Below are positions 6,973 to 43,455 of a stretch of DNA of 64,000 bases, piece by piece. Under the pieces are notes generated by a model. That model saw only the letters and a list, made by a program, of their open reading frames with translations, did no database searches and was not told where the DNA came from. How positions within the stretch are numbered: position 1 is the first letter of the stretch; every line of letters starts with the position of its first letter. The DNA lies in assembly GCA_963839515.1 (NCBI GenBank), contig CAWIVN010000030.1, positions 32,040 through 96,039 of the forward strand, given 5' to 3'. Both the position numbers and the translations under genes were made by a program. This DNA comes from an uncultured Chloroflexia bacterium (GTDB lineage: Bacteria > Chloroflexota > Anaerolineae > Caldilineales > Caldilineaceae).

Positions 6973-7596
6973 ATGACGCATTTGGCCCCCCAACTACTAT
7001 ATACTCTAGCCTTCGATTCCAAACCGTTGGAAAGCGACGCCGAGCAGCACCTGGCTGCCTGCACTGCCTGCCGCCAAGCCTTGGCCGACCTGCGGGCGCT
7101 GGCCGAGGAGCTGAGGGTTATGAAGGTGAGCGAACCGTCACCCGCGGCGCTTGAACGCTACTATGCGGCGCAGTCGCTCATACAGCAGCAACCTTCGCGC
7201 CTCGGCGTCATGTGGCGCAACGTTTTGGCCATGCTTACGTGGGACAGCCGGCAGCAGGCGGCCTTGCAGGGCGTACGCAGCGGTGCAGGCAGCACGGCCT
7301 ATCGCCTCCTCTATGCTACTGAACAGGCGGAGATAGAGTTGCTGATCGAGCCGGAAGGACGTGCGTTCCGCACCCAGGGCGAAATCATTGCCGGCCAGGA
7401 GCCGGACGCAGCCGGCACACCCGTGACCCCGGCATTGATTCAGTGGATCGACGCGCAGGGCGACATCCGGTACGAAACGGAATCTGACACAAGCGGTCTT
7501 TTTTCGCTGCGCAACATTGCGCCCGGCATCTACCGGCTGTCCATCGTTTCCGCGGCCAGCGACATAATCGAAATTGAGGCGCTGGAGATCATGTGA
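6973..7596 (+). CDS. Putative zinc-finger (ZAS-type) anti-sigma factor, soluble, with a C-terminal carboxypeptidase-regulatory-like beta domain
   Basis: HLAACTACRQ matches the H-x3-C-x2-C ZAS motif and lies directly downstream of the ECF sigma gene. No predicted transmembrane segment. C-terminal FSLRNIAPGIYRLSIV resembles a CarbopepD_reg-like fold. Confidence 0.55.
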   Translation: MTHLAPQLLYTLAFDSKPLESDAEQHLAACTACRQALADLRALAEELRVMKVSEPSPAALERYYAAQSLIQQQPSRLGVMWRNVLAMLTWDSRQQAALQGVRSGAGSTAYRLLYATEQAEIELLIEPEGRAFRTQGEIIAGQEPDAAGTPVTPALIQWIDAQGDIRYETESDTSGLFSLRNIAPGIYRLSIVSAASDIIEIEALEIM

Positions 7597-14478: not shown

Positions 14479-14745
14479 TCCGGACTACACTCATGTGTCC
14501 CTGGGATCTGCGAGATCCTGGGGACATTTTTTTGCTGCGGGTGCCGTTGATTGGCGTACGCCCCATGTCCGGCAGCCATATGCCGTCTGTACGTACACAA
14601 GCCGTACTCCGAACGCCGCAGTTGTGTGGACGTTTTTTGTATTTTCCAAGCATGTGTCGATCTCTTGTGAGTCAGCCGTGCAAATCTGGCCAGTGCGATG
14701 CCGTTCGATTGCACGCGATATCACACAAATCCAAGGAGGATTACG

Positions 14746-22646: not shown

Positions 22647-23864
22647 ATGGATGCAATACATTCCAGCGGTCTTGCTATTGAGAGCTTTGGTGAAACGATG
22701 GCATTTGATTTTGACAATGCGCCCGAGCGGCGCGGGACAGACAGCGCCAAGTGGGCCTACTTTGGGCCGGATGTACTGCCGATGTGGGTGGCGGACATGG
22801 ATTTTGCTTCGCCGCCTGCAATCAAGGAGGCGCTGCAAGAGCGCGTAGCGCATGGGGTATTTGGCTACGGCTGGGATAGCGCCAAGCTGCGGGCAGCAGT
22901 GGTGGAGCGCATGGCGCGGCTCTATGACTGGAGCATTGAAGCGAGCGACATCTTCTTCCTGCCGGGGCTTGTCAGCGGGCTAAACGTGGTGAGCCGGGCG
23001 ATTGGCGAGCCAGGCGACGGTGTAGTCGTGCACAAACCAGTATATGGGCCGTTCTTGAGCGCGCCGGTCAACCAGGGGCGCACGTTGCAGGTTGCGCCCC
23101 TAAAGCTGCACAGCGAGGGCCAGCGCCTGCACTACACGGTGGACTTCGAACGATTTGAGGAGGTCGTAGACGATTCGACGCGCATGTTCATCCTCTGCAA
23201 CCCGCACAACCCGGTCGGCCGTGCCTTCCGCCGCGACGAGTTACTGCAGATGGCAGATATATGCGAGCGACACAATCTGGTGATTTGCTCAGACGAAATT
23301 CACTGCGACCTGTTAATGGAAGACACGAAGCATATTCCAGTCGCCAGCCTGTCGTCCGAAATTGCGCAGCGCACGATCACGCTGATGGCGCCGAGCAAGA
23401 CTTTCAACGTGCCGGGTTTGGGATTCAGCATGGCGATCATTCAGAACGTCGAAATGCGCAAGCAGATCGAAAAGACGGCAATGGGCATCGTGCCGCATGC
23501 CAACATCTTGGGGGTAGTCGCCGCCGAGGCGGCCTATACGCGCTGCGACGATTGGCTGCGCGAGCTGAATGCCTATCTGACCGCCAACCGGGATTACGCC
23601 GTCGCCTATTTGCAGCGCGAACTGCCCGCCGCGCGCATGACCTGCCCGGAAGCGACCTACCTGCTGTGGGTGGACTGCCGCGAGCTTGGCATCGAAGGAA
23701 CGCCGAGCGATTTCTTTCTCAAGCAGGCCAAGGTAGCGAGCAACGACGGGAAATGGTTTGGGGAAGAGGGCGAAGGATTTGTGCGCCTGAATTATGGCTG
23801 CCCGCGCCACATACTGCAGAAGGGGCTGGAGATGCTCGTGGAGTCTGTTCGCAATGGTCAATGA
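22647..23864 (+). CDS. PLP-dependent class I/II aminotransferase of the MalY/PatB C-S lyase type
   Basis: RRGTDSAKW ... WVADMDF ... SKTFNVPGLGFS (PLP-Lys region). The ATG at 22698 is an alternative start. Confidence 0.75.
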   Translation: MDAIHSSGLAIESFGETMAFDFDNAPERRGTDSAKWAYFGPDVLPMWVADMDFASPPAIKEALQERVAHGVFGYGWDSAKLRAAVVERMARLYDWSIEASDIFFLPGLVSGLNVVSRAIGEPGDGVVVHKPVYGPFLSAPVNQGRTLQVAPLKLHSEGQRLHYTVDFERFEEVVDDSTRMFILCNPHNPVGRAFRRDELLQMADICERHNLVICSDEIHCDLLMEDTKHIPVASLSSEIAQRTITLMAPSKTFNVPGLGFSMAIIQNVEMRKQIEKTAMGIVPHANILGVVAAEAAYTRCDDWLRELNAYLTANRDYAVAYLQRELPAARMTCPEATYLLWVDCRELGIEGTPSDFFLKQAKVASNDGKWFGEEGEGFVRLNYGCPRHILQKGLEMLVESVRNGQ

Positions 23865-24891
23865 CTTCTTGAATGTAGCACTACAATTTACCCCACTGCT
23901 CGCCATTCTCCTGTTCGCCAACTGGGGCGAGCGGCTGCGCCAGCGGGATGTCCCTTACATGGCCCCTGTCGTCGTCAGCTATGTTGCCACCGCCCTGCTC
24001 TATATTGCAGCCTTTGTTTTCGGCCTCATTTTTCTGCTCACCGCCACCATGCCCGCGGCGCCGATTCCGATCGAGTCGCCGGCGTGGCTTGTCTTTGGCG
24101 TCCTCGTACCCAGCGTAATCGGCTTGCTTCTGCTGCTGAAGCCCGCGCGACGCCTCGTCGCCCGTTTCACCAATTTGGAGCCGGATCATCCCGTCCACAC
24201 GGTGGCGCTGGCGCTGACGATGACGCCCATTCTCAACCAAGGCCTGACGCTTGGCATCGGTCTTGAGACACTGACCAACCTCATCAGCCAGCAGGCGGAG
24301 CAGACCGGCATGGCACCGATTTCGCTGGCGAGCCTGTGGGCGCAAAACATCATGTTTGTGCTGATGGCCTTGATAGGCGTAGGCTGGCTCACGCGCCTTA
24401 CCTTTGGCGAGTCGCTGCGGCGGCTTGGGATCGTGCGGCCCAGTGGCCGCGATATTATGATCGGTGTGGCCGCCGCGCTGGTGTTGATTCCAGTGATCCC
24501 CATCCTGCTTGGGTTGCTTGGCAACGCGGGCATGGGCGTAGATCAAGACGTCGAGTCATTGACCGAGGTGTTGACGGGTGCGTTATTTGCGACGCCGCTG
24601 GGAATTCTCTCGGTCGGCCTTGCGCCGGGCATTGGCGAGGAGTCGATCTTCCGCGGCGCGATGCAACCGCGCTTTGGCCTGGTGCTTACTTCGATCTTGT
24701 TTGCCCTGGTACATGGGCAGTATGGGCTCTCGTTGGCGACGCTGGTCGTGTTTGGCCTTGGTCTCGTGCTGGGCATCGTGCGCAACCGCACCAACACGAC
24801 TACGTCCATGCTCACGCATGCGCTGTACAACTCGGGTACTGCCTTGCTGGCTTACCTGGGCATCCAGTTCCTGAGCCAACAGCGGCCCTAG
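23854..24891 (+). CDS. CPBP / CAAX-type intramembrane metalloprotease family protein
   Basis: Motifs GIGEESIFRG (EExxxR) and FALVHG in a multi-transmembrane protein. Confidence 0.7.
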   Translation: MVNDFLNVALQFTPLLAILLFANWGERLRQRDVPYMAPVVVSYVATALLYIAAFVFGLIFLLTATMPAAPIPIESPAWLVFGVLVPSVIGLLLLLKPARRLVARFTNLEPDHPVHTVALALTMTPILNQGLTLGIGLETLTNLISQQAEQTGMAPISLASLWAQNIMFVLMALIGVGWLTRLTFGESLRRLGIVRPSGRDIMIGVAAALVLIPVIPILLGLLGNAGMGVDQDVESLTEVLTGALFATPLGILSVGLAPGIGEESIFRGAMQPRFGLVLTSILFALVHGQYGLSLATLVVFGLGLVLGIVRNRTNTTTSMLTHALYNSGTALLAYLGIQFLSQQRP

Positions 24892-24902
24892 AAGCCATGC
24901 TG

Positions 24903-25208
24903 TTACCAGCCAGCCTCCGCCGGAAACACGTCCGTAAAGCGTACGGCAGTGCGGGGCTTGGCCATCATCGACGTCACGGTATCGCGCCACACAGCGTAAT
25001 GGGCCGTTTCCTTGTGATCGACGGTTGCTTCTTGCGAGCGGTAGACCTCGTTGAGCACAAAGTGCGTGGGGTCGTCATTGTCCTGGATCACGTCAAAGCG
25101 AGCGATCCCTGCTTCCTGTACACTATTGCGAGCGTTCTCGATAGTGGCGGCCTTGAAGGCTTCGACTGATTCAGGCAAAACATAGACATGTACGTGCACG
25201 ACCAACAT
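24903..25208 (-). CDS. Antibiotic-biosynthesis-monooxygenase (ABM) / Dabb-family small protein
   Basis: 101 aa ferredoxin-like ABM fold (HVHVYV ... [12 protein letters not shown] ... HKETAHY). Confidence 0.6.
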
Positions 25209-25427
25209 CGTCAGCCTCTCCTTTTTGCGAGCGGATTGTGAAATGCCAGTATCATATCACCTCGACCCTTCTTGCCTACCTTGACGACTCCTGGTATTCG
25301 CCTTACAATCTGTAGGTGCGATATTAGGTTCTGGTTCCCAGCCCTGCCGTGACTTCGCCGCCCAGGAGAGCCGTATGAGCGACCCCCAAAGCTTGCAGCG
25401 CATCCCCGCATCCTCGGAGGAAAGCAC

Positions 25428-26984
25428 ATGAGCAGCAAAGTGTCTTGGCGCAAGGACATGCCGCCGCTGCTGCACTTCCTGGAACAGAAACTTAACCATC
25501 GCGTGCGCGGCCACGACGAAGTCCTCGGCTATGAGCTTTATTTTGTCGATCTTTCCGCGTGGAAACTGCGCTTCTCCAACGCCACACCCGTATTGTGGAT
25601 GAAAGAGAATGACCTTGCCTCGTTCGACAACCCGCGCCAAATTGCGGAGAGCGTGATCGAAGCTGTGCGCATGCGCAACCTGGTCGAGCGCCAGACAATC
25701 GTATTGGTGGACGGCCCCGAAGCGGGACTGCGCGAAGCCTTTCGCATCAGCTTTATGCCCATTATGGTGCTTGACAGCATTGACGTCCACGCCGTAATGG
25801 AATCACGGCGGGCGACCGGCGAATTGCTCGACCGCCTTTGTATTCAGCTTAGTCCGGCGTTGCTTTCGCCCTACGAGATCAGCAAACCTGTTACCGGCTC
25901 GCGCTTTTTCGGCCGCGAGTCGGACCTACGCCGGATCCTATATGGCAGTGACAGCAACTACGCCGTGATGGGCATACGCCGTATCGGCAAGTCTTCGCTG
26001 CTGCGCGAGGTCGAACGCCGGCTGCAGGAACAAGTACAAGAAACCGTGCAGGAGGGCTTTAGCAGCGAGGATATCGCACGCCGCATTTTTTACAAGGACT
26101 GCAGTTCGATCACTTCGTCGGGAGCACTGATGCAGGCCGTGGTCAACCACTTCCATCCGCAGGAGTTGAATCGGCTCAACCACCGCCAGTTTCCCATCTT
26201 TTTCCCGGATTTCATGCGTCGCATGGCCAAGCGCTACGGTGGACAGCTTGTGTTCTTGCTCGACGAGTTCGATGCGCTGCTGCGCGCCGAGTTCGCCAAC
26301 GAGGAGTTGCTCGACCAACTGCGCGCTTCCAGTAACGAGGGCAGCTGCCGCTTCATTTTTGCCGGCTTCCGCGACTTGCTCAACGAGACTAGCAGCCTGA
26401 GCTCGCCGTTCTTCAATTTCGCCAAACCCCTGCGGCTCAAGGAGTTTAGTCGCGAGGACGCTGCCAGCCTCATTCTCATGCCACTTGAGAGCTTGCGCAT
26501 CCGACTCGAACGCCGCGAAGAAATTATAGACATAATTTACGGCGAAACCGCTGGTCAGCCCAACCTGATCCAATATTACTGTTCCTACTTGGTGGACAAG
26601 CTCGACCGTAGCGGCAATCGTGCGGTTTCGCCCGAGGATGTAGCGGGCGTGCCTGACGACGAAAACTTCCGATCGTTTCTGGTCAACACCTTTATGGACA
26701 ATACCGATCACCTGGAGAAGGCGCTGGTCTTCTCACTGATTCTTTTTGACCCAGTGAGCGAAAAACGCTACGACCTGGAAATGATCGATCAGGCGCTGCG
26801 CAAGGGTGGAATCGACACACGTTTCCTACAGCTGGAGCGAGCCTGCCGCAACCTTGAGCTCACGGGCATTTTGGACAAGCGCGGCCGACACTACCATTTT
26901 GCCATCCCAGTTTTCCCCCGCGTGTTGCGTGCGAACTACAACATAAAGTATCTGCTCGGCAAGATCCGTTATGAGGGTATATAG
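25428..26984 (+). CDS. P-loop ATPase of AAA_16 / Arch_ATPase (DUF234) type with a C-terminal winged-helix domain and an uncharacterised 150-aa N-terminal domain
   Basis: FFGRESDLRRI ... Walker A GIRRIGKSSLL ... Walker B LVFLLDEFD; C-terminal wHTH-like segment. Confidence 0.6.
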   Translation: MSSKVSWRKDMPPLLHFLEQKLNHRVRGHDEVLGYELYFVDLSAWKLRFSNATPVLWMKENDLASFDNPRQIAESVIEAVRMRNLVERQTIVLVDGPEAGLREAFRISFMPIMVLDSIDVHAVMESRRATGELLDRLCIQLSPALLSPYEISKPVTGSRFFGRESDLRRILYGSDSNYAVMGIRRIGKSSLLREVERRLQEQVQETVQEGFSSEDIARRIFYKDCSSITSSGALMQAVVNHFHPQELNRLNHRQFPIFFPDFMRRMAKRYGGQLVFLLDEFDALLRAEFANEELLDQLRASSNEGSCRFIFAGFRDLLNETSSLSSPFFNFAKPLRLKEFSREDAASLILMPLESLRIRLERREEIIDIIYGETAGQPNLIQYYCSYLVDKLDRSGNRAVSPEDVAGVPDDENFRSFLVNTFMDNTDHLEKALVFSLILFDPVSEKRYDLEMIDQALRKGGIDTRFLQLERACRNLELTGILDKRGRHYHFAIPVFPRVLRANYNIKYLLGKIRYEGI

Positions 26985-29828
26985 GTGAACAACTGGCCCT
27001 CCGAACCAACCGGCAGCTGGGAACTCACTCCATATGCGGGCGACAGCCAGTTCAAGCGGCAGCGTCTGCGCCATCTCGATCGCATTCGCCAAGTAGTCGA
27101 ACACGTCCGTCAGCATGATTATGTCGTGCTCCTCGGCCCCGCCTACAGCGAAAAGACGCGACTGCTCAACGACGTGGACGAAAAGCTCGCCGCTAGCGAC
27201 CTTTATACACCGATCTATGTCAATCTCTGGCGCGTGCGCACCGACGACGAGGCGGCGTTCTTTTCTAGCCTGGCCCAGGTGATCTGTCGATCCGAGCGCA
27301 TCTGCGGTCAGCCCTATGCCGATATGGAGCGGGCAGATCGCACCTATGACGGAGGAAGTTTTCGTTCCTTTCTAGACACGATCGCGCAGCATCACGACCG
27401 GCATGTGGTGCTGCTAATTGACCATTTACAGGTGCTGCCGCAGGATTTGACGCACCGCCTGCTGCAGTTGTTGCGCGCTGCCTACATGGAGCGCCAGCCT
27501 ACTGCCCAACACCAGGTCGACGTCGTCGTGGCGGGAAGCGCCGCCTTGGCTGAACTCTCGCATGACAGCACCTCGCCCTTCAACATGGCGCACCCCGTGT
27601 TTCAAGGGCCACTCACAGTTGACGCTTCGCTGGCACTAACCCGCGCCAACTTGGACGCTGCGGGAACACCATACTCGCCGGGAGCGGCTGAGCGCTGCGT
27701 TTACTGGGCTGGTGGCGACAGCTACCTCATCCCGCAATTGATCAGCTTGTGCCAAGAGAAACTCCAAGGCTATCGTAATCAGCGCATTACTCGCACGGTC
27801 GTGGATCATACCGCCGAAGAGTTTGTCGCTGATCTACCATGCGATCCGATGCGGGCAGCTATTCAGGTGATCGAAGAAGACCCAGATACATTGCTCGACA
27901 TCGTCACGCTGCTGCGCGAGGCAGTGCTGCCGCGCAACCAGGCACACCAGACAATCCTGCGCACCGGACTGGATCGCCTGCAATTGTCCGGGGCCGTCGT
28001 ACTGGATGGGGACAGCTACCACATCAAGAATGAGATATACCGCCGCGTGCTACACCGTCATTTCGTACAAGGACGTGTTGCCCATGTGCTGCGCATGAAC
28101 GGGCGATGGGAGGAGGCAATTCAGTACCTATCGACCGAACTAGAGAGCGAACCGCTTGCACCCAGCGACATCGAGGCCAGCCGCACGGTTCTTCTAGACG
28201 CAATCGTCCAGTCAATCTATGCGGCCGGCCGCGAGGAAGATGCCTATCGAGCGTTGCTGGAGGGCATTCACCTGGGTTTCCATCTCTCAGGGGTACGCGT
28301 CTATCGCGCCTACGCCGGCCGCGGCGAACTGCGCCTGGTTGAAAGCGACGACGAAATTACCCCGGCGGATGCGGTCATCGACCTCAACGATGTTGCGCAA
28401 GCCGAAGTGCGCACGTTTCGTGGTGGTGACTATGCTCTGCGCGGCGAGATGGGAAGCAAACGGCTGTTGGCAGCATTGACGCCGGAACGGCGGCCTATCG
28501 GCATGGTTACCATCGATCACTTTAGCGCCGAAACCGAACCTCACGTCTATCCACCCCATCTCTTTGCCTTGCTGCGGTTTCTGCGCCACGCATCCAGCGC
28601 CATCGAGAACGTCATGATGCGCAGCGCTATTCAAGAGATCGGTCGGGCCGTACTCAACGCCAGCACGCTCACCTCCAACCTGGACCACGTGCTGCAGGTC
28701 GTGCTTAACGCCACGGGCGGAGACGCCGCGCAATTGCACTTACTTGACGCAGAGTACGCCCATCTGACACGTTTTGTTCACACTGGAGACATGGCAGCGG
28801 TTCGCGATGCCGGCGAGGCGCGTATTGAGCTGGAGTTGAGCAACCACCCGGCAGTACAGGCACTACGCAATAATACACTCACGCCATCACGCCAGGCTAC
28901 GCCGCCAGGAATGTATGCCTATCTGCCGCTTGTAGCTGGTGGCAATCAACTTGGCGTGCTTGTGCTCTTCTTTGGCGGTTTACACAGTGGTCTCAGCGCC
29001 GAAGATCGCAAAACATTGGAGACTTTTGCTGACCAGGTTGCGATTGCAGTGCACAACATGCAGTTGCTACGCCGTACCGACGACGCCCTGCAGGAGAAAG
29101 TACGGCAGCTTGACGCCCTGCGGCGCCAGGCCGTCCAGGAACGCGACCAGGAGTTGCAGGATGTGGCAACCGCACTCGTCCATCGCATTGGTGGCGCGAC
29201 CGGCGATATTCCCGTTCACCTGGCGCGTGTACGTGCGGCAGTCGCGAACGAGAGTGAGGAACAGATCGCCGCGCGCAGCGAGGTGTTTGATGCACTCGAA
29301 CACGTGGAAAAACGCATCCAGCACGTGCAAGACCTGCTGCCGTCGCTAGAGGAGATTGCGAACCTGGCTGCGGTCAGCTTCCGGCCCGTGGAGCTGTCGG
29401 GCCTGCTGGAGGAATTGGTAAACGAATTGGTGTCTAGTCCCGGCGTAGTCGAAGCGGACCTGGCTGTCGACAAGGATGTCATCGTCGAAGGCAGCCGCAC
29501 CTTGCTGCGCGATGCCTTGCGCTCGCTGCTGGAGAACGGCTACGAGGCCATGCCGCGTGGCGGCACGTTAACCGTACGCGTCACCAAACTGCCGGGAGGG
29601 CACGTCCAGATTCGCATCGAAGATACGGGGGTGGGCATTGCTGATAAGCACAAGAGCAAGATGTTTCAGCTAGGCTTTAGCACCAAGGGAGGACGCAGGC
29701 GCAACCGTGGACGGGGTATGTTCACCTGCCGAGCTATCGTGCGCAAACATGGCGGGGAAATCGCCATCGATTCGCGCGAGGGCCACGGTACAGTCGTCAC
29801 GATAGTACTGCCACTCCTGGGAGTCTAG
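26985..29828 (+). CDS. Cytoplasmic sensor histidine kinase: N-terminal P-loop ATPase domain (paralog of the upstream ATPase) + GAF domains + HisKA-like/HATPase_c
   Basis: VVLLGPAYSEKTRLL (Walker A-like), VVLLIDHLQ (Walker B-like). C-terminal HATPase_c (LLENGYEAM ... IEDTGVGI ... GRGRGMF ... HGGEIAI). No transmembrane segments. The GTG start abuts the upstream stop. Confidence 0.7.
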   Translation: MNNWPSEPTGSWELTPYAGDSQFKRQRLRHLDRIRQVVEHVRQHDYVVLLGPAYSEKTRLLNDVDEKLAASDLYTPIYVNLWRVRTDDEAAFFSSLAQVICRSERICGQPYADMERADRTYDGGSFRSFLDTIAQHHDRHVVLLIDHLQVLPQDLTHRLLQLLRAAYMERQPTAQHQVDVVVAGSAALAELSHDSTSPFNMAHPVFQGPLTVDASLALTRANLDAAGTPYSPGAAERCVYWAGGDSYLIPQLISLCQEKLQGYRNQRITRTVVDHTAEEFVADLPCDPMRAAIQVIEEDPDTLLDIVTLLREAVLPRNQAHQTILRTGLDRLQLSGAVVLDGDSYHIKNEIYRRVLHRHFVQGRVAHVLRMNGRWEEAIQYLSTELESEPLAPSDIEASRTVLLDAIVQSIYAAGREEDAYRALLEGIHLGFHLSGVRVYRAYAGRGELRLVESDDEITPADAVIDLNDVAQAEVRTFRGGDYALRGEMGSKRLLAALTPERRPIGMVTIDHFSAETEPHVYPPHLFALLRFLRHASSAIENVMMRSAIQEIGRAVLNASTLTSNLDHVLQVVLNATGGDAAQLHLLDAEYAHLTRFVHTGDMAAVRDAGEARIELELSNHPAVQALRNNTLTPSRQATPPGMYAYLPLVAGGNQLGVLVLFFGGLHSGLSAEDRKTLETFADQVAIAVHNMQLLRRTDDALQEKVRQLDALRRQAVQERDQELQDVATALVHRIGGATGDIPVHLARVRAAVANESEEQIAARSEVFDALEHVEKRIQHVQDLLPSLEEIANLAAVSFRPVELSGLLEELVNELVSSPGVVEADLAVDKDVIVEGSRTLLRDALRSLLENGYEAMPRGGTLTVRVTKLPGGHVQIRIEDTGVGIADKHKSKMFQLGFSTKGGRRRNRGRGMFTCRAIVRKHGGEIAIDSREGHGTVVTIVLPLLGV

Positions 29829-29859
29829 ACATACCCGTTGGGAAGGAGTCACTGCCGCC

Positions 29860-31428
29860 ATGCAAAATGCACGCATTTTGATTCTCGACGATGATGAACA
29901 GTGGGTTAAGACCTTCCGCACTGTCCTAGATGGAAAGGTTGCCAGTATCGACAGCGTACACAGCTTGGCAGAGGCCATCGACCTGCTCGACAAACGCTAC
30001 TTCAACGTTGCCATCGTGGACCTACGCCTGAATAATGATGACTCGAGCGACGATTCAGGCATGGAGTTTTTGGCCGCGGTCCGGAAACGCGGGTTGGCGG
30101 AGGTATTGGCTCCCATTATGTGCACAGCGTACGGCAACCTTACGAATGCTATAGAAGCCTTGCGCGACTACCAAGTGGTTGATTTTATTAATAAGGGAGA
30201 CTTTCAGGCGGAGTCACTGCTGCTGGCAGTCAGAAAGGCCCTCGAACGGCAGCACTGCGCCAACCATATCGAAATTGAATTGGAAGGGGAGCAGCCGTTT
30301 GCCAGCCTATGGGAAGGTAAAGACTGGGCGCGCAGGGAGGATCCCAAGGAGCTGGCGGCAGAGTTGCACGACCTACTGTGCCGGCTATTTCCGCGTGCTG
30401 ATCACCTGTGGATTCGCCCGCTGGCGGCAGGACAGAGCGGGGCCGGCATACTTGAAGTTGAACCCACATATCGCGCTACCGCCGGCGAGATCGACATCGT
30501 CAAGTTTGGCAAGCGAGATAAGATTCTGCAAGAGGTCGACAACTACACAGAGGGTGTTGATCTCTATGTCAGCAACCAAAGCTCCACCAAGGTCGAAGGC
30601 GCCCATGGCCGCGTGATGGGGGCAATCCGTTACCGATTGATTGGCGCAGGCGACGGCAAGGCCGATTCACTCGCCGACCGTTACCGGAACCACGATGTGG
30701 CCGACGTCTGTGCAGTACTCGACAACCTATTTGGCGTGACCTGCCGGCGCTGGTACGACAATCGCGAGCAGCCCCGGCGTTACCGTGATTTGGTCGGATT
30801 GTACACTGAAGGGCTGCACATTGAGTGGGACGAGGTGTGGAGCGCTGCCGCACACTGCGGCGTCGACGTCAGCCGGCCAAAAATCGAGTTCCCAGGCATT
30901 TCGGGCGATTTCATCAATCCTCGCCATTGGTTAGCGGAGCGCAAACACATCTGCTCGCATCGTGTGTGGCTAGCTTTTACGCACGGCGATCTCAATGAAC
31001 ATAATGTCCTGGTAGCACAAGACCGCCGCTGCTGGCTGATCGACTTCTACCGCACTGGCAAGGGACACATCTTGCGTGACTTTGTAGAATTGGAAACGGC
31101 CTTCAAGTTCGGCTTGACTCAACTTGATAGCTACGCTGACCGAGAACAGTTGGAGAGTCTGCTGCTGGAACAAAAGAGCTTCAAGGAAGAGCTAAGGGTA
31201 GACCAAACTCGCCCCTATGCACGCGCCATCTCTGTGATTGCACACCTACGCTCGCTGGCAGGCGAGGTCCTCGGCTTGGAGCGCGAAATGGAGGAGTATC
31301 AGGTGGCCCTCCTCCTGCAGACACTAAAGCTGCTCAGTCTGAACTTTCTGTACCCAGACGAACGAAGCCGCGGTCATGTTCTGTTGGCGGCCGCCATGAT
31401 CTGCTCTAAGCTAGGCCAGCCAAACTAG
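29860..31428 (+). CDS. Response regulator: REC receiver domain fused to an APH / protein-kinase-like phosphotransferase domain
   Basis: REC domain ILILDDDE ... VAIVDLRL (phospho-Asp) ... CTAY ... FINKG. C-terminal GQSGAGILEV (Gly-rich loop), IVKFGK (Lys), HGDLNEHNVLV (catalytic loop), LIDF (DFG-equivalent). Confidence 0.65.
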   Translation: MQNARILILDDDEQWVKTFRTVLDGKVASIDSVHSLAEAIDLLDKRYFNVAIVDLRLNNDDSSDDSGMEFLAAVRKRGLAEVLAPIMCTAYGNLTNAIEALRDYQVVDFINKGDFQAESLLLAVRKALERQHCANHIEIELEGEQPFASLWEGKDWARREDPKELAAELHDLLCRLFPRADHLWIRPLAAGQSGAGILEVEPTYRATAGEIDIVKFGKRDKILQEVDNYTEGVDLYVSNQSSTKVEGAHGRVMGAIRYRLIGAGDGKADSLADRYRNHDVADVCAVLDNLFGVTCRRWYDNREQPRRYRDLVGLYTEGLHIEWDEVWSAAAHCGVDVSRPKIEFPGISGDFINPRHWLAERKHICSHRVWLAFTHGDLNEHNVLVAQDRRCWLIDFYRTGKGHILRDFVELETAFKFGLTQLDSYADREQLESLLLEQKSFKEELRVDQTRPYARAISVIAHLRSLAGEVLGLEREMEEYQVALLLQTLKLLSLNFLYPDERSRGHVLLAAAMICSKLGQPN

Positions 31429-32588
31429 ACAGTCTCTGTGCGCGTCGTCTTCAATAAAGCGTTGTCCGCTTCGTCCAGCGGATAGTCCGGATCCATTCCG
31501 TTATCTGCTTTGGGTGCAGATGCGAAGGCTGCCGCAACCGGCGCATTCGGCGCGGCGGCTGGTTCCGGCTGCTGGTTTGCCACTGGTCGGTGTGGCTCCG
31601 GCTCCGTCGCCGCGAGCGGCATAGGTTTGGCGGGTTGCTTTTCCGCCGGCGGGTTGGTGCCAGTCGTCCCCGTGTCAGGCCGGAGTACATGACGCATGCT
31701 TGGCTGGCCATCCTGCAACAGCATTTCGGTGTTGAGCATGCCGCCCGTGAAAATGCTGTGTATGTCTGCCGAGGGATTCTGGATAGTGTTGAAGAGCTGG
31801 ATGAGACCTGCTTCGGACATATTGGGGGCAGCCTTTTGTACGCGGCGGATAAAGTCCGAACGCGCCGAACTGCTGACGTCGCTTCGCAACATGTCCACAT
31901 AGGCACTGCTGATTTCGTACGGCAGAGTAAGTCCGTTGATCAGCACCGGCGCATCGGTAACCATGATGCCGTGTGGTCGCAATGCATTACGCACAGCCGG
32001 CTCCAGAGCTACCTGCAAAGCGCGAGCCTTGGCGCCAGCAAAAGGGCTGAAGAGCTTGACAATGTCCACACGATCAGGTGCTTCCGCAGCACCCAATTGT
32101 CGCTCAGGTGTTTTGCCGCTGGTCTGCGCCCCAGGGTTGGTAGGCGGCGTCGCCTGCTCCAACTGATAGACAAGGTCCTGAAATACGCGCTTGAGGAGCG
32201 TGCGCTGCTGCTCCGCGCGCTCGGCGTCGGTATAGTAGATCTCGTGCCGATTCATGTGCTTGGGTTCGAGCCAGTAGGAATAGCGCAAATTGACCGTCAC
32301 CGGCATTCCGCCTTCGGTAAAGACATTGGGTACGACTTCCTTTGCCTCGCGCTGGCGTACGTAAACCTTCGTTGCTTCGTTTTCGATCGGGCTAAGGAAA
32401 TAGTAACCAGGTCCCGCGGTGCGTTTGAATCGATCCATTTGTTCGATTACCGCCACGTAGCCTTCCTCAGCTTTGCGAATGCGTGTGGACAGGTAATACA
32501 CGGTGGCGACTGTAAGTGCAGAAAGTAGGCCACCCAACAGGCACAGTACCACTAGTTCCGGATCAGGGTTTCCCATAGGTAGCCACAT
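31425..32588 (-). CDS. SPFH / band-7 (stomatin-prohibitin-flotillin-HflK/C) domain membrane protein with a Pro-rich C-terminal tail
   Basis: N-terminal transmembrane segment, then GYVAVIEQMDRFKRTAGPGYYFLSPIE ... VFTEGGMPVTVNLRYSY, typical of SPFH. Disordered Pro/Ala-rich C-terminal 90 aa. Confidence 0.65.
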   Translation of the reverse strand: MWLPMGNPDPELVVLCLLGGLLSALTVATVYYLSTRIRKAEEGYVAVIEQMDRFKRTAGPGYYFLSPIENEATKVYVRQREAKEVVPNVFTEGGMPVTVNLRYSYWLEPKHMNRHEIYYTDAERAEQQRTLLKRVFQDLVYQLEQATPPTNPGAQTSGKTPERQLGAAEAPDRVDIVKLFSPFAGAKARALQVALEPAVRNALRPHGIMVTDAPVLINGLTLPYEISSAYVDMLRSDVSSSARSDFIRRVQKAAPNMSEAGLIQLFNTIQNPSADIHSIFTGGMLNTEMLLQDGQPSMRHVLRPDTGTTGTNPPAEKQPAKPMPLAATEPEPHRPVANQQPEPAAAPNAPVAAAFASAPKADNGMDPDYPLDEADNALLKTTRTETV

Positions 32589-33567
32589 ACTCCTTGAACG
32601 CCGGCGAAAAGATCTCGGGCGTCTGCAGGCTATCGATCAGCCCACGCTTATACAAAAACTCGCGCAGCCACGGGGCTGGCAGTTCGCCGCTCGTGAGTTT
32701 CAACAAGGCAGTACGTTCGGAGCTGTGCAAGTGCTTCCAAATGTGCTCACATGCGTTACGCACGGGTCCGGGCACTGTAGCCAGATCCTTTAGTCGGCGA
32801 GGCGGCATGTTGAACTGGGGTTTGATGGCCGTCACCAATGCGGCCATAATACCGGCGTGATTGCCACTCATCATGAGAATACGCTCGCGATCCACCGCCT
32901 CAATAGTAAGCCTCTCCCTTGCCGCCAACACATCCAACATGGCTTTGGCATCGTCTGACCGGTAGGGGCCGAATGCCACCATGTTGTCACAGATCAAACG
33001 ATAAAGCGAGCTATTTTCAAAGGGTTGGCTGCCCACCACCCGATGTGGTAGCCGGTGGGTGATAAAGACGTAGGCAAAGCGCGGCGGCGTGCGCACCTCG
33101 TCGCGCACGTTGCACAACTCTTCAAAGAAATACAACGGTTGGTGCCGAATCAGGCTCTCAAACTCATCCAGGACATAGACAATACGTTGGCCAGCCGTTA
33201 GGCAAAGATGTCTCACGGCATCGCGCAACTCAGTGTAGCCGCTGCCTTCCCGCCCTGGCCGCAGTTCGTACCCAACTTTCTGCGCTGCCGGCCGCAGACC
33301 ATGAAGCATCTCAGCATAGAAGCGCGCCGACGAGTCAGCCACCTGCAGGCAGCTAATCCAACATACGGTAGTGCTATCGGCTGTGGCCTGGTCTGCCGCA
33401 TAGTGACGCAGCACCTGCGGCTGCCTGGTGAAATTCACCAGGTTCGATTTCCCCGACCCGGCCAGACCCACCAGGCATAGGGAATGTCCGACAGCCGTGG
33501 TGTCGAGTACGTATTCGACCACCTCGCGCCGATAGTCAAGCGGGTATCGATCTAGAATCAACTCCAT
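32563..33567 (-). CDS. P-loop NTPase (AAA_16 / Arch_ATPase-like), third paralog in this neighbourhood
   Basis: Walker A GLAGSGKSNL, Walker B IVYVLDEFE; overlaps the start of the SPFH gene. Confidence 0.6.
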   Translation of the reverse strand: MELILDRYPLDYRREVVEYVLDTTAVGHSLCLVGLAGSGKSNLVNFTRQPQVLRHYAADQATADSTTVCWISCLQVADSSARFYAEMLHGLRPAAQKVGYELRPGREGSGYTELRDAVRHLCLTAGQRIVYVLDEFESLIRHQPLYFFEELCNVRDEVRTPPRFAYVFITHRLPHRVVGSQPFENSSLYRLICDNMVAFGPYRSDDAKAMLDVLAARERLTIEAVDRERILMMSGNHAGIMAALVTAIKPQFNMPPRRLKDLATVPGPVRNACEHIWKHLHSSERTALLKLTSGELPAPWLREFLYKRGLIDSLQTPEIFSPAFKEYVATYGKP

Positions 33568-33773
33568 GAATCAAAGATACGTCGATTGCGTTCGTGTGTC
33601 AACCAAAATCATCGTGGTTTTGCCTATAATTACCTTACATTTCTGAGATGTTCGACAGAGAGTAAGGTCCATGGTATGCTATCCGCGCCATCGTTCGGCC
33701 GCGCGAATGGCCGAATGATGATCTTGATCGTTGCGTGATGGCGCCGCGACGTCGAAACCCAGGAGGTGCGTAA

Positions 33774-36449
33774 ATGACTGACGAGATTGAGGCTGACGCT
33801 GAGGCCAAGGCTGAGACGGCGCCCACAAACGGTCCGATCGACGACGCGGCCGAAGCTACTACCGACACGGTGTCCATAGAGTCCGGCGATCAAGAGTCTC
33901 AAGAAGATCAAGAAGTAATTGGAGAAACCGCCTCATCTCCAGTCAGAAGACGCCGCGGACGGCCTGCCGGCAGCCGCAATAAGACTAAGCCAAAGCTGGC
34001 GCCGCCAGTGGAGGAAAGCGCACCGCCGACCGCGACAAGGCAGAACCACGAGGCACAGCCTGCTCCTCGTCGTGTGCGGCGGCGGGCAACCCCCGCCGCC
34101 AACGGGTCCACTCCCAGCGGCACGCCGCCAGATGTGAGGCGAGCCGGCGAGACAACTATGAATGGTATGAATGGAGCTGAGGGCGTCGCAGTCACTGGGG
34201 CGCAGAGAGGCGACTTGGCACCGGAGCTCAGTCCCGAATTGGCAAGCAGCATGTCGGAGCGTTACGTTCGGTTCCTGCATAACTTTCAGCGCGACCGCAC
34301 GCTGCCGCCTCACCCCATTATCGAGCCACGCTACGACATTACGACATTGTCGATCGACGAGCTGAGCAGTTCCGAAGAAGTGTACAATCGCGAGCTCAGC
34401 TGGCTGGATTTCAACTGGCGCGTGCTGCATGAAGCGGTGGACCGACGCACCCCGCTGCTCGAACGGCTGAAGTTCATCGCCATTACTTCTTCCAACCTGG
34501 ACGAGTACTTTAGCAAACGCGTAGGTGGCCTCAAGCGCCAGAAGGCAGCCGGCGTCGCCAATCTTACGCTCGACGGCTGGGCGCCGGACGTGCAGCTTTC
34601 GCTCATCGCCGCGACCGTACGCCGGATGATCGACGTCGAAAGCGACTGCTTACACGACGACATTCTGCCGGCCCTGGCCAAGCATGGCATTCGCATTTTC
34701 AATTATGCCGAGCTGACGCCCGCGCAGCACGAGAAGCTGACGAGCTTCTATCAGAAAGAAGTCTACCCGATCCTGACACCGCTGGCCGTCGATCCTGGCC
34801 ATCCCTTCCCGTTTATCTCCAATTTGAGCCTGAGCCTCGGGGTCGTGCTGCGCGACCCGGCCAGCGGCGACGTGCAGTTTGCGCGCGTGAAGGTGCCGCA
34901 GACCCGCCAGCGTTGGGTGCCGCTCGACAGCCTCATGCACTTCGTGCCGCTGGAACAGGTGATCACCGCCAACCTCGACACGCTTTTCAAAGGCATGGAG
35001 GTGCTGGCTGTCTATCCCTTCCGCGTAACCCGCAATGCGGACCTTGCGCGCAACGAGGAAGAAGCGGACGACCTGCTGGAGATGATCTCGGAAGAGCTGC
35101 GCGAGCGCCGTTTTGCCCCGGTGGTACGGCTGGAAGTAGACGAGAAAATGCCGGCGGAAGTGCTGGCGCTGTTGCAGAATCAACTCCACCTGGACAATGA
35201 CGACGTCTACCATGTGCGCGGGTTGCTGCGGCGCGTGGACCTGTTCGCGCTGGCCGACATCAATCTGCCGCATCTCAAATACGAGCCATGGACTCCGCTG
35301 ACGCCTTCGCGCTTTGCCGGCATCAACAGCAAGGGGCGGCCGGGCGAGATGTTCAGCGCCATCCGTCAAGGCGACATCATCGTCCATCACCCATACCACA
35401 GCTTTCAAGGCAGCACGCAGATGTTTGTGGAGGCGGCGGCGCGCGACGCGCAGGTGCTTGCGATTAAGCAAACACTATATCGCACAAGCGACAACTCGCA
35501 GATTATCGCCGCGCTGATCCAAGCGGCCGCAATGGGTAAGCAGGTGGCGGTGCTGGTCGAAGTCAAGGCACGCTTTGACGAGGCCAAAAATATAGAGTGG
35601 GCGCGCAAACTGGAAGAGGCGGGCTGCCATGTCGCCTATGGGTTGGTCGGACTAAAAACGCACTGCAAGGTGTCGTTGGCTATTCGCCAAGAAGAGGACG
35701 GACTGCGCACCTATTACCATATCGGTACGGGCAACTACAACGCCAAGACGGCAGGCGTCTACACGGACCTCGGTTACTTTAGCTGCAACCCCGATATCGG
35801 CGCCGACCTGCTGGACCTTTTTAACTATTTGACAGGGTACAGCTACCAGATCGACTATCGCAAGCTATTGGTTGCCCCCGTCAACATGCGCAACCGCTTT
35901 ATCGAGCACATTGATCGCGAGATCGCACATGCCGTGGCAGGCAGGCCGGGACGCATCATTGCCAAGATGAACGGTTTGGAAGACCCGGCCATGGTGCGCA
36001 AGCTCTACGAAGCAAGCCAGGGGGGCGTGGATATCGACCTGATCGTGCGCGGCAACTGCCGGCTGCGTCCGGGTATTCCGGGGGTCAGCGACAACATTCG
36101 CATCATTTCGATTATCGGCCGCTTCCTAGAGCATTCACGCATCTTTTACTTCCACAACGACGGGGCGCCGCATTACTATATCGGCAGCGCCGACTGGATG
36201 CGGCGCAACCTCAGCAGCCGCGTCGAAGCTGCTACTCCGATTGAAGACCCACGATTGCAGGAATACCTGTGGTTTATTCTGCAGAGTTCGTTGGAAGATC
36301 ATCGCCAGGCGTGGGACTTGCTGCCCGACGGTCGTTATCGCCAACGCCTGCCCTGGTCTGGGAGCACCACGCTTGAATCAGGCGGCGTACAGGCCTATTT
36401 CATGCAGTACACGCGCATGACGGCGCCTGCGGGGGGCGTCGGGACGTGA
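33774..36449 (+). CDS. ppk: Polyphosphate kinase 1 with a roughly 180-aa low-complexity N-terminal extension containing an AT-hook-like motif
   Basis: PPK1 N, H and C domains (RYVRFLHNF ... [17 protein letters not shown] ... catalytic His region ... two PLD-like C-terminal domains). Perfect AGGAGG 7 nt upstream of the ATG at 33774. The extension contains [16 protein letters not shown]. Confidence 0.85.
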
Positions 36450-41565: not shown

Positions 41566-43455
41566 ATGTCGATGCATGAGCTGTTTGCCGAAGCTGTAGA
41601 ACGCCTGAAGGCGGGTGAACCCGCCGCTACGATCGTGGCGTCCTACCCGGCGGATGTGCAAGCCGAGATAAGCGAGCTGTTGGCTATCGTCGAGATGGCT
41701 GACCAGGTCGCGGTGCAGCCGCTGCCACAGCGCAGTATGCGGCAGCGCTCGCTGGCGCGTGCCCAGTTTTTGCAGCAGGCGGGCGCAATACGCGCCGAGC
41801 TCGAGGAAACCCTGGGTGCACCGGTCCTGACGCAGCAGTCCGGCGGCGCGTCGACCAGTGGGAAAAAGCGTGCAGCGCAACCCAGTTGGCGTGAGCGCCT
41901 GGCGATGGGCTGGGGCAGCCTGTTTGACAGCCCGTTGCTGCGGCTGGCGCCGCTGGCAGCGGTGACACTGGCAGTATACCTCGCCCTTTTCTGGACCGTC
42001 CGCACGGCCGAAGCGGCGCTGCCTGGCGACGCTGTGTACCCCATCAAGCAGTGGGTGCGCGAGCAGAAAATCAATCTGTCACCTCCCGAACAACGTGTAG
42101 GGGCAATCCGCGAGGCACAAGACCAGCTAGCACTCGAAGCCAAAACACTGGCGACGGTGCTGCAAACGCGACCCGAAGCGCGCTCGGAGCTGGCGCTCGA
42201 GTACAGCGAAGACATGATCTATTATGGCCGTCACGGCGACCTCCTCATGATCGGCCCATTCTTGGTGGCGCCCAACTACCAGCCTGATGCGGCCGAAGAG
42301 CAATTTGTGGCCATGGAGTTGGCGGGGACACCGGAGCCGGGTTCAACGGTGCGCTTGACGTATCGTGTGCTGCCCGGCAACCCGAGCGTCGTGCAAGGTG
42401 TGCGAGCAGTTGTGGTAGATACGCCGAAGCCTGCACCTGAACCTACGGCGACGCCAACGCGAGGCGATGTATGCCGAATTGCGCTGCCGGCAAATTGGAT
42501 TCCCTATGCAGTAAGACCAGGCGATAGCCTGGCAGGTCTGGCAAACCGCAGTGGCGCAAGTGTGGACTCCATTCGGAGGGTGAATTGCGTCTACACCATC
42601 GATGGCATTAACACGCTTTACCTGCCAGACAGCGTTTACGTGCTGGTCACACCAGCAAGCATGCCGACGCCGATTCCCACTCTGCCGCCGACGCTCACGC
42701 CGGTGCCTACAGCAACATCGATTCCGCAGTTGACTGCGACGCCCATGCCGACCGGCGACCAAACCGAGGTTCCGACTGGCGTTCCGACTGGCATTCCAAC
42801 CGGGATTCCAACCGGCGTGGCAACCGTCGAGCCGACGGCGCAAACCACTGTCGAACCGACGGGTGAGCCGGGCCAGACGCCGGCCGAGACACCTGGAGGA
42901 ACACCAGGTCAGACGCCGGCTGCAACTCCGATGGCTACACCGACCGAGTCACCGACCGCATTACCGACAGAGTCTCCTTCGGTGACTGCCACCAGCGAAC
43001 CGAATGGGACTGTCGCACCCACCAATCAGGCGACGGCGACAGTGGTGGCTGCAACAGAGGCCGCTACTGAGGCGCCTACGAGCCTCCCGACTGCTGTTCC
43101 GACGAGTGCACCTACGTTGGAGCCTACGCCTGTCCCGACACAAGTGCCACCGACACAGGCGCCGCCCACCGAAGCGCCTCCTACGGCAGCGCCTCCTACG
43201 GCAGCGCCTCCCACCCAGGCACTGCCTACGCAAGCACTGCCAACGCCTATCCCGCCCGCGCCGGAGCCCCCTACCCCCGCACCCCCGGCACCAGAGCCGG
43301 CGACACCCGTACCGGCGCCAGTTCTGCCTGCGCCAGAGCCGCCGACTCCCATACCAGCTGCACCTCTGCCGCCAGCGCCGGAGCCGCCAACGCCGGGGCC
43401 GGCGCTGGTGCCGGATGTACCTACGGACCCGCCGGCGATATCGGAATCCAATTAG
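41566..43455 (+). CDS. Putative membrane anti-sigma factor with a LysM domain and a long Pro/Thr-rich repeat tail
   Basis: Position downstream of the ECF sigma; one transmembrane segment (LLRLAPLAAVTLAVYLALFW). LysM-like segment YAVRPGDSLAGLANRSGASVDSIRRVN. About 270-aa PT-rich tail with tandem repeats (VPTGVPTGIPTGIPTG; APPTEAPPTAAPPTAAPPT; PAPEPPTP). Confidence 0.5.
   Translation: MSMHELFAEAVERLKAGEPAATIVASYPADVQAEISELLAIVEMADQVAVQPLPQRSMRQRSLARAQFLQQAGAIRAELEETLGAPVLTQQSGGASTSGKKRAAQPSWRERLAMGWGSLFDSPLLRLAPLAAVTLAVYLALFWTVRTAEAALPGDAVYPIKQWVREQKINLSPPEQRVGAIREAQDQLALEAKTLATVLQTRPEARSELALEYSEDMIYYGRHGDLLMIGPFLVAPNYQPDAAEEQFVAMELAGTPEPGSTVRLTYRVLPGNPSVVQGVRAVVVDTPKPAPEPTATPTRGDVCRIALPANWIPYAVRPGDSLAGLANRSGASVDSIRRVNCVYTIDGINTLYLPDSVYVLVTPASMPTPIPTLPPTLTPVPTATSIPQLTATPMPTGDQTEVPTGVPTGIPTGIPTGVATVEPTAQTTVEPTGEPGQTPAETPGGTPGQTPAATPMATPTESPTALPTESPSVTATSEPNGTVAPTNQATATVVAATEAATEAPTSLPTAVPTSAPTLEPTPVPTQVPPTQAPPTEAPPTAAPPTAAPPTQALPTQALPTPIPPAPEPPTPAPPAPEPATPVPAPVLPAPEPPTPIPAAPLPPAPEPPTPGPALVPDVPTDPPAISESN
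42770..43440 (+). repeat. Coding low-complexity tandem repeats (12-nt and 15-24-nt units) encoding PT-rich and PAPEPPTP-type linkers
   Basis: For example CCGACTGGCGTT / CCGACTGGCATT / CCAACCGGGATT / CCAACCGGCGTG, and GCGCCTCCTACGGCA x2. Confidence 0.6.

Follow-up and report, generated by a model that had tools for sequence, protein, structure and literature searches.

The subject of this analysis is a compact module of five genes at positions 25428–33567 of the window (the whole 64,000-nt stretch of DNA analysed, from an uncultured Chloroflexia bacterium, to which positions refer unless a comparison locus is named), in which a soluble histidine kinase is predicted to control a receiver fused to a kinase-like enzyme. 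The module is composed of two convergent operons. The plus strand carries an ATPase gene (A1, 25428–26984, 518 amino acids, aa), the histidine kinase gene (HK, 26985–29828, 947 aa) and the response regulator gene (RR, 29860–31428, 522 aa); the minus strand carries the ATPase gene A3 (32563–33567, 334 aa) and an SPFH/band-7 gene (SPFH, 31425–32588, 387 aa). An earlier note on this DNA, made from the sequence alone, had proposed five open reading frames (ORFs) here, and all are found exactly where it placed them, with the domains that it named. Its description of their packing is borne out as well: the GTG start of HK, preceded by GAGGG, directly follows the TAG stop of A1, a gap of 31 nt with a GGAAGGAG ribosome-binding site separates HK from RR, and the end of A3 overlaps the start of SPFH. 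The stops of SPFH and RR overlap by 4 nt, and SPFH probably starts at its second ATG (32576), given the spacing from an AAGGAG ribosome-binding site. A consensus scan, which is a matter of pattern matching only, gives sigma-70-like promoter candidates upstream of A1 (TTGACG-17-TACAAT, 25281..25309, plus strand) and immediately upstream of A3 (TTGACA-17-TATCTT, 33574..33602, minus strand).

HK and RR appear to form a bona fide two-component pair. Domain calls with Pfam and NCBIfam give HK the order P-loop module (aa 27–254), helical region, GAF (562–690), coiled linker, DHp and HATPase_c (838–944; 78 bits for a cut-off of 26.4), with LLENGYEAM, EDTGVGI, GFSTK and GRGMF as the N, G1, F and G2 boxes. 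Of the HisKA/HATPase output announced by the earlier note, the HATPase_c half is confirmed; HisKA is not detected by Pfam, and a conserved H-box, LVHRIGGATGDIP, with His733 encoded at 29181–29183, is present instead. Every HK orthologue keeps the consensus LVHR[IL]GxAxGD[IV]P, the one replacement being in a paralogue with a PP2C output. Hydropathy reveals no transmembrane segment in HK, which is accordingly a soluble sensor kinase.

RR joins a receiver (REC, aa 6–124; Response_reg, 45 bits, cut-off 30.2) to a kinase domain (about aa 160–520) that matches TCAD9 (PF19974, 112.1 bits, cut-off 40) and, weakly, APH, RIO1 and Kdo, so that the proposed fusion of a receiver to an APH/kinase-like domain holds at scores above both Pfam cut-offs. 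The receiver has a complete acidic pocket (D11–D12), the acceptor Asp54 (30019–30021), T89 and K112, all conserved across HK-linked homologues, and the kinase residues K215, E225, H375-G-D377, N382 and D395 are invariant among homologues. The motifs HGDLNxxN and IDFxRTG are APH-like. An AlphaFold2 (AF2) model with a predicted local distance difference test (pLDDT) score of 90.6 has as its neighbours in the Protein Data Bank APH(3')-Ia/IIa, the amicoumacin kinase AmiN, TvaE and receiver domains, all at a low level of similarity (TM about 0.5 on the target, 12–15% identity). Judged from its sequence, RR is a bona fide member of the TCAD9/protein-kinase-like group.

The association of these genes is deeply conserved. 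A word-indexed search delimits an RR family of 89 clusters at 90% identity, and a scan of species-representative genomes yields 31 loci, 30 from Chloroflexota and one from a bin labelled Heliobacteriaceae. The host groups are Caldilineaceae, Ca. Amarolinea, Promineifilaceae, Ca. Leptovillus/Leptofilum, Anaerolineales and others; with the exception of the Heliobacteriaceae-labelled bin, all hosts that bear a name belong to filamentous lineages of Chloroflexota. Profile hidden Markov models of six families were mapped on 42 fetched comparison loci (labelled L and a number), together with tblastn. The neighbourhood is kept in about 30 Chloroflexota genomes, down to 23–30% identity, so the objection that it might not be conserved fails and the multi-gene module is genuine. 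A1, HK and RR are contiguous in at least 15 loci, and the gene directly before that of the TCAD9 protein encodes an HK in nearly all loci whose flanking sequence suffices. Adjacency in about 30 loci and the existence of a HATPase_c-REC-TCAD9 fusion protein, which supports the wiring of HK to the receiver, argue for a His-to-Asp transfer from HK to RR. The cytoplasmic two-component pair feeding a kinase-like output, as envisaged in the earlier note, therefore seems well founded.

Four gene orders recur. The first, that of the window and of L003/4, L007, L010, L012, L014–L016, L027, L028, L037 and L041, has A1-HK-RR, with or without a preceding M29-like gene, convergent with A3-SPFH. The second is the colinear series M29-like-A1-HK-RR-A3-SPFH (L017, L022, L023, L025, L033), the third places A3, followed or not by SPFH or the M29-like gene, ahead of A1-HK-RR (L009, L019), and the fourth, without A1, is HK-RR-A3 with or without SPFH (L006, L029, L030, L038, L040). 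From these orders emerges an invariant core of GAF-HK, REC-TCAD9, a nucleoside triphosphatase (NTPase) and usually SPFH, to which A1 and the 455-aa M29-like gene are accessory. The M29-like gene stands directly upstream of A1 in 12 loci; as a sixth component of the module in the window it is rejected, being absent there (tblastn E > 0.1). In L014 the A1, RR, SPFH and A3 genes, in L033 most genes and in L041 the RR gene are split into several ORFs, through frameshifts of long-read assembly or true pseudogenisation.

P-loop modules occur at three points of the locus. In A1, AAA_22 is matched above threshold, and nSTAND1 (25.4 bits, cut-off 27.1), AAA_16 and ATPase_2 just under it. Its Walker A is GIRRIGKS and its Walker B LLDEFD, and in an alignment of 22 homologues GIRRIGK[ST], DEFD and the downstream arginines are all invariant; A1 is presumably an active, canonical AAA+ ATPase. 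A profile search retrieves the Sulfolobus Arch_ATPase 2fna (3.7e-8), and the structures nearest to its AF2 model (pLDDT 76) are 2fna/2qen and ORC/Cdc6, with TnsC, NB-ARC, MalT, BrxC and RdrA ranking lower. A1 is thus an ORC/Cdc6-like AAA+ protein, with AAA+ base, lid and C-terminal winged helix behind an extra N-terminal domain of about 150 aa. These 150 residues are highly conserved and well predicted in the model, and searches assign them to no family; a STAS-like fold, considered on the strength of a 'VDLS..F.D' motif and of the order of strands and helices, was dropped at a probability of 0.1 in hhalign against SpoIIAA. The likeness to STAND systems suggested in the earlier note is weakened, since no repeat domains are detected in A1 or A3, the terminus of A1 being a winged helix, and the best matches are ORC/Cdc6- and Arch_ATPase-type AAA+ proteins, which the two resemble more than they do canonical STANDs.

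The P-loop module of HK, with a weak ATPase_2 match at aa 27–199, is deviant but conserved, in the form GPxxSEK[TS] plus hhhhDH. Close orthologues show GPxxxEK[TS] and hhhhDH, and a more distant clade GPRxx[S/N/T]K[ST] with D[S/D/A/N]. The canonical Walker-A glycine is found, among modules of this type, only in a relative with a PP2C phosphatase output, and the catalytic glutamate is missing from every one aligned. Given these deviant Walker motifs, the module probably binds nucleotide without hydrolysing it. The earlier note had regarded the three ATPases as paralogous copies of one module. The P-loop modules are indeed present, but their sameness was overstated: pairwise BLASTP gives E = 4e-4 for A1 and A3 and 0.29 and 0.29 for the other pairs, and each has a separate orthologue family. 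Recent paralogy is rejected, and the three are best described as ancient, barely similar relatives.

In the minus-strand arm, A3, which is translationally coupled to SPFH, matches AAA_22 (30.4 bits, cut-off 27), nSTAND1 (26.5 bits, cut-off 27.1) and AAA_16, and its Walker A (GLAGSGKS) and Walker B (VLDEFE) are both conserved among orthologues. SPFH owes its identity, correctly recognised before, to a Band_7 match (33.6 bits, cut-off 23.6; aa 39–114) that covers only the N-terminal part of the profile (positions 2–76). It is the only protein of the module with a hydrophobic helix (aa 9–35), and it ends in a long, low-complexity, Pro/Ala-rich tail. The gene downstream of A3 matches Band_7 in 14 of 17 candidates, and A3 adjoins TCAD9 kinases, with or without SPFH, in about 26 loci where RR identity runs from 74% down to 23%. 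A3-SPFH is genetically tied to TCAD9 kinases over a very deep divergence. The two arms do not, however, evolve in step. The A3 and SPFH proteins of the window are 38–57% identical to their counterparts in L038, L039 and L040, where the TCAD9 kinases are only 23–25% identical to RR, while loci with window-type A1, HK and RR (42–57%) have A3 and SPFH proteins at only 24–31% and 23–27%. This pattern points to re-assortment of the A3-SPFH cassette relative to the A1-HK-RR arm. The chromosomal context of the window (Mrp, aminotransferase, CAAX, ABM) is also found in L039 (10001–14739), with an A3-SPFH pair 56–57% identical to that of the window; the next gene encodes an 854-aa protein that matches APH/TCAD9 only weakly. 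Since the context and A3-SPFH are kept and A1, HK and RR are absent, L039 looks like the replacement of one arm at a fixed locus.

The TCAD9 domain extends far beyond this family, with 1,802, 769 and 169 representative clusters at E ≤ 1e-3, 1e-10 and 1e-30, respectively. Plain REC-TCAD9 proteins make up 83 of 120 full-length top hits; other architectures, in addition to HATPase_c-REC-TCAD9, are REC-TCAD9-HisKA-HATPase_c and (GAF)n-TCAD9, in which a sensor is fused directly to the kinase. The input side also varies. In L042, an A1-like gene adjoins an ATPase_2-SpoIIE/PP2C protein without GAF-HK. Since PP2C here stands in place of GAF-HK, A1 and its degenerate AAA+ partner behave as an input unit for varied phospho-outputs. 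In L027 (246–7069), REC-TCAD9 is preceded by tandem paralogues of the deviant-AAA+/GAF sensor, of which one has SpoIIE/PP2C (1.2e-50) at its end and one DHp-HATPase_c; a single type of sensor may thus have phosphatase and kinase outputs that oppose each other. The existence of a protein phosphatase as an alternative output faintly hints that the regulated entity is a phosphoprotein.

Some HK-linked relatives of RR carry a further C-terminal domain. These are TIR (L031 and L034; ThsB model, 1.5e-60), SIR2 (L029 and L030; ThsA model, 7e-11), CHAT (7.5e-25) and PNP_UDP_1 (2.4e-20). For example, in L031 (7736–13200) and L034 the genes run in the order REC-GAF-HK, REC-TCAD9-TIR (ThsB-like) and PNP_UDP_1, the last one overlapping, and the protein P0374 fuses REC-TCAD9 directly to PNP_UDP_1. 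The REC-TCAD9-TIR and REC-TCAD9-PNP loci look like the strongest candidates for a defence function. In a neighbour-joining tree of RR, effector gains fall on several different branches, an effector-swapping pattern that is typical of immune systems and also reported for Detocs, the defensive two-component system of Rousset et al. (bioRxiv 10.1101/2023.01.24.525353). Trypco2, MNT/HEPN, HNH and NB-ARC-WD40 genes are neighbours in relatives. One dense locus, L040 (1–21005), contains REC-multiGAF-HK, a TCAD9 pseudokinase, TCAD9-CHAT, Trypco2, NTPase-Trans_reg_C, an MNT/HEPN pair, A3-SPFH, an inositol phosphatase, PocR-HK, a stand-alone REC, GAF-HK and REC-TCAD9. L038 (4133–15008) contains PocR-HK, REC, GAF-HK, REC-TCAD9, A3 and SPFH, plus an HNH nuclease.

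A different kind of relative is found in L001 (3056–12010; GCA_046328745.1, Caldilineaceae). Its operon comprises astacin-like and transglutaminase-like genes, a MoxR AAA_5 ATPase, a 634-aa protein, a 550-aa protein with a weak CHAT match and a REC-TCAD9 protein, and also shows weak peptidase-like matches. The REC-TCAD9 protein (669 aa, with an N-terminal extension) is 58% identical to RR and its sister in the neighbour-joining tree; both the acceptor Asp54 and the catalytic Asp377 are lost. The protein has the look of a decoy effector that arose from a window-type RR and is inactive. The survey PMC7159879 states that conflict systems acquire modules from cellular subsystems 'typically in inactive form', and the fit of the L001 copy to this rule suggests that the window-type module is such a source subsystem.

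Taken together, these data favour, with moderate confidence, an NTPase-assisted kinase module gated by a phosphorelay, with a logic similar to that of Detocs, that serves stress or conflict responses. A cytoplasmic cue would be read by HK through its GAF domain and its AAA+ module, taken to be non-hydrolysing, probably as part of a hetero-oligomer that includes the ATP-hydrolysing A1, as suggested by translational coupling, co-inheritance and the pairing of active and degenerate motifs. HK would autophosphorylate on His733 and pass the phosphoryl group to Asp54 of RR, and the phosphorylated receiver would activate the TCAD9 kinase. The latter would then phosphorylate a small molecule or a protein, A3 and the SPFH tail being the prime candidates because their cassette accompanies TCAD9 kinases from clade to clade and shares a transcript with RR where the loci are colinear. 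A3 and SPFH would constitute a second arm, as a membrane-anchored pair. The output would most likely be a thresholded stress, dormancy or abortive-infection-type response of filamentous cells, built like that of Detocs from different parts, and in the 'effector-less' variant of the window the effector would be either the kinase itself or A3-SPFH. A stress or conflict role appears the most likely, because the HK to REC-TCAD9 chassis carries TIR, SIR2, CHAT or PNP elsewhere and has an inactive copy in a MoxR-type conflict operon.

The idea of a defence-type system put forward in the earlier note gains indirect support from the TCAD9 family and from these effector-bearing relatives; for the locus of the window itself, a defence role is no more than plausible. 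A broader proposal, offered only tentatively, is that the HK to REC-TCAD9(-effector) loci constitute an undescribed, two-component-gated family of immune or programmed-dormancy systems in multicellular Chloroflexota. The APH-like kinase would be the obligatory transducer or effector, the AAA+ pair (active A1 and its degenerate, HK-fused partner) would sense the invader or stress, and NTPase-SPFH would act as an interchangeable executioner. The window form would be ancestral, chromosomally fixed and the source of the inactivated MoxR-type decoy.

Several observations weigh against a conflict role for the module. RR ends right after the kinase domain, with no death effector. The five genes lie amid an Mrp antiporter, an aminotransferase, a CAAX protease, an ABM gene, PPK1 and MDH, with Ffh further on. 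This housekeeping context recurs in L003, L007, L010, L014, L039 and L041, is kept in relatives at 45–74% RR identity and is vertically inherited; mobile defence islands typically differ in this respect. The rate at which A1, HK and RR diverge is about as low as that of the housekeeping genes on either side (57% for A1, 62% for the aminotransferase). A mobile-element or defence-island context in the window was rejected on account of these flanks and of a GC content that is only slightly lowered (0.56–0.59 against about 0.60). The A3 orthologues of L017 and L029 end in an OmpR-type DNA-binding domain (Trans_reg_C, 8e-18), which A3 carries in the colinear clade and which fits ordinary transcriptional signalling equally well. 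Comparison of the five proteins with PADLOC-DB 2.0.0, a release in which the presence of Detocs models was unchecked, gives no meaningful model match, the two marginal hits being to PDC-S01 (5.9e-4 over 43 residues) and to PDC-M60B (3.2e-3 over the receiver). Finally, substrate and signal are inferred, as are any contacts between A1 and HK or between RR and A3.

In the most serious competitor, less probable but substantial, the module has no conflict role and serves instead for housekeeping or developmental signalling particular to the lineage. A cytoplasmic metabolic or energy cue would be sensed through the GAF and nucleotide-binding modules, and the receiver-gated kinase would in response govern the phosphorylation of a regulatory target, A3, which in sister clades is a DNA-binding transcription factor; SPFH would be a membrane scaffold, and the effector fusions secondary borrowings of a cellular module by conflict systems. 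Control of STAND-type regulators by Ser/Thr kinases, as in AfsK/AfsR, resembles such a scheme. In addition to the chromosomal context by Mrp, aminotransferase, PPK1 and MDH, the housekeeping-like conservation of A1, HK and RR and the lack of a meaningful PADLOC match, this explanation accounts for the 83 plain REC-TCAD9 proteins among the 120 full-length TCAD9 relatives, for the co-transcription of the A3-Trans_reg_C orthologues with RR and for the PP2C-output paralogues, which are typical of partner-switching signalling and likewise speak against a conflict role. It also agrees with a statement in PMC7159879 that conflict systems borrow modules from cellular subsystems. It is at odds, however, with the recurrence of four classic immune effector families on the HK-linked chassis in several branches, with the re-assortment and fast divergence of the A3-SPFH cassette, with the Trypco2, MNT/HEPN, HNH and NB-ARC-WD40 genes near relatives, and with the A3 of the window itself, which is without a DNA-binding domain.

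A further possibility, less likely than not, is that of a small-molecule kinase under two-component control, in which TCAD9 would phosphorylate not a protein but a metabolite, a compound like an antibiotic or a signal derived from a nucleotide, for resistance, detoxification or second-messenger control. The solved structures closest to RR are aminoglycoside 3'-phosphotransferases and amicoumacin kinase, its HGDLNxxN and IDFxRTG motifs are APH-like, and nucleotides or NAD+ are what TIR, SIR2 and PNP, the domains fused to it in relatives, all act upon. However, a TM of about 0.5 with 12–15% identity cannot discriminate between substrates, enzymes of the APH fold include protein kinases, and the PP2C-output sensor paralogue in tandem with HK in L027 hints at a phosphoprotein target. 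A small-molecule substrate would in any case be compatible with either biological role. A chance juxtaposition of functionally unrelated neighbours, to which the abundance of P-loop, GAF-HK and REC genes in Chloroflexota and the opposite strands of the two arms might lend some colour, is extremely improbable and refuted by synteny and fusion data: the families are linked in about 30 genomes, arranged in four or more orders, some of them as one colinear operon and some as fused domains.

If the phosphorelay-gated conflict module proposed here is real, it would be a second case after Detocs, with a distinct architecture, of phosphorelays turned into immune or dormancy switches, and the first of a receiver controlling a protein-kinase-like enzyme. 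The orphan TCAD9 kinases, about 1,800 representative clusters of which none is characterised, would thereby gain a cellular 'home'. An inactive AAA+ module that senses together with an active partner would be exemplified, as would a link between SPFH scaffolds and NTPase signalling. Even in a housekeeping role, it would represent a widespread, unstudied signalling pathway of filamentous Chloroflexota, some of them from wastewater sludge.

Other genes of the window merit a brief description. An ABM-family gene (24903–25208, minus strand, 101 aa), whose membership of the module is uncertain, is a possible travelling companion. Its copies, 65–91% identical, lie inside or beside the module in shifting positions: in the window and L014 they precede A1, in L003 (9971–10276), L010, L016 and L036 they stand between RR and SPFH, and in L007 (13766–14071) they come beyond A3; L039 (16464–16769) has the gene too. 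It may be a functional companion or a mere syntenic neighbour. Further away, a gene on the plus strand at 7593–10583 encodes a 996-aa TPR-CHAT (caspase-like) protein (CHAT, 4.7e-57), followed by an S8 subtilase with DUF5666 (10599–12239) and a DUF5666 protein (14698–16197); in L039, too, a similar pair of S8 and DUF5666 genes is found ahead of the Mrp operon. These genes may form a separate proteolytic or conflict-type system. In the PPK1 ORF (33774–36449, plus strand, 891 aa), the first Pfam domain starts at residue 204 and alignment with homologues only at about residue 136; the start codon may be further downstream, or else the protein has an N-terminal extension particular to its lineage. 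The aminotransferase (22647–23864) and CAAX-protease (23794–24891) ORFs, both on the plus strand, overlap by 71 nt as mechanically called; the CAAX-protease start is probably further downstream, since homologues align from residue 2–20. No Pfam family is matched at E ≤ 1e-5 by two sizeable ORFs, 12477–13691 (plus strand, 404 aa) and 41566–43455 (plus strand, 629 aa).

How the module relates to known systems can be considered protein by protein and then as a whole. A1 shares with Arch_ATPase proteins (PF01637; 2fna, 2qen) the AAA+ base, lid, winged helix and F-G-R-E N-terminal motif, and the N-terminus of HK weakly matches PF01637. A1 differs by its extra N-terminal domain, and the HK copy by its fusion to GAF-HK and the absence of the Walker-A glycine and catalytic glutamate. 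We know of no function for the archaeal proteins. As in SPFH-NfeD operons, the SPFH protein of the window is anchored N-terminally and encoded in a two-gene unit, but its partner is a P-loop NTPase instead of NfeD, it has only the N-terminal half of Band_7, and its tail is long and of low complexity. Likeness to Thoeris is limited to relatives, the C-termini of L031/L034 matching ThsB and those of L029/L030 ThsA; these domains, absent from the window, are fused to an HK-controlled receiver-kinase chassis and do not form a ThsA/ThsB pair.

The TCAD9 and nSTAND1 families come from surveys of NTP-dependent conflict systems in multicellular prokaryotes (Kaur et al. 2020, PMC7159879; 2021, PMC8195603). 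Effectors in these surveys include active APH-like kinase and receiver domains, with which no histidine kinases were found (PMC7159879, PMC8195603), and Band-7 domains are among the effectors of ternary systems (PMC7159879). The module has in common with vWA-MoxR-VMAP systems the same TCAD9 kinase family, combinations of receiver and APH-like kinase, NTPases and multicellular or filamentous hosts, and the 58%-identical RR copy of L001 lies in a MoxR operon (only MoxR being identified there). The two differ in that receivers in those systems are without histidine kinases, while the module always has its cognate HK adjacent, and in that the L001 copy is catalytically dead and the window copy intact. 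MoxR, vWA and VMAP are absent among the flanking genes of the window, and neither MoxR nor vWA occurs in the 16 flanking ORFs scanned; for lack of a MoxR or vWA gene nearby, the module is not a system of this type.

Detocs consists of a histidine kinase with a TPR sensor (DtcA), a stand-alone buffer receiver (DtcB) and a receiver fused to a cell-killing effector (DtcC). In both systems a cytoplasmic sensor kinase phosphorylates, or in the module would phosphorylate, a receiver fused to a swappable enzymatic effector; relatives of RR carry PNP, the Detocs effector family, as well as TIR, SIR2 and CHAT, and a stand-alone receiver gene in the L038 and L040 operons is reminiscent of the Detocs buffer. 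The window differs from Detocs in its sensor, with a deviant AAA+ module, GAF and a separate AAA+ partner instead of TPR, in the absence of a stand-alone receiver and of a killing domain, in the APH-like kinase placed between receiver and any effector (and forming the sole output in the window), and in its A3-SPFH arm, which has no counterpart in Detocs. Without TPR sensor, buffer receiver and killing domain the module is not a Detocs system; it shares the logic and not the membership. Searchable literature, the coverage of which is incomplete, describes no HK-coupled REC-TCAD9 regulator and no such five- or six-gene module, and mentions only the Pfam names. The novelty of the module lies in the combination of two-component-gated enzymatic effectors with NTPase-based modules in the style of conflict systems.

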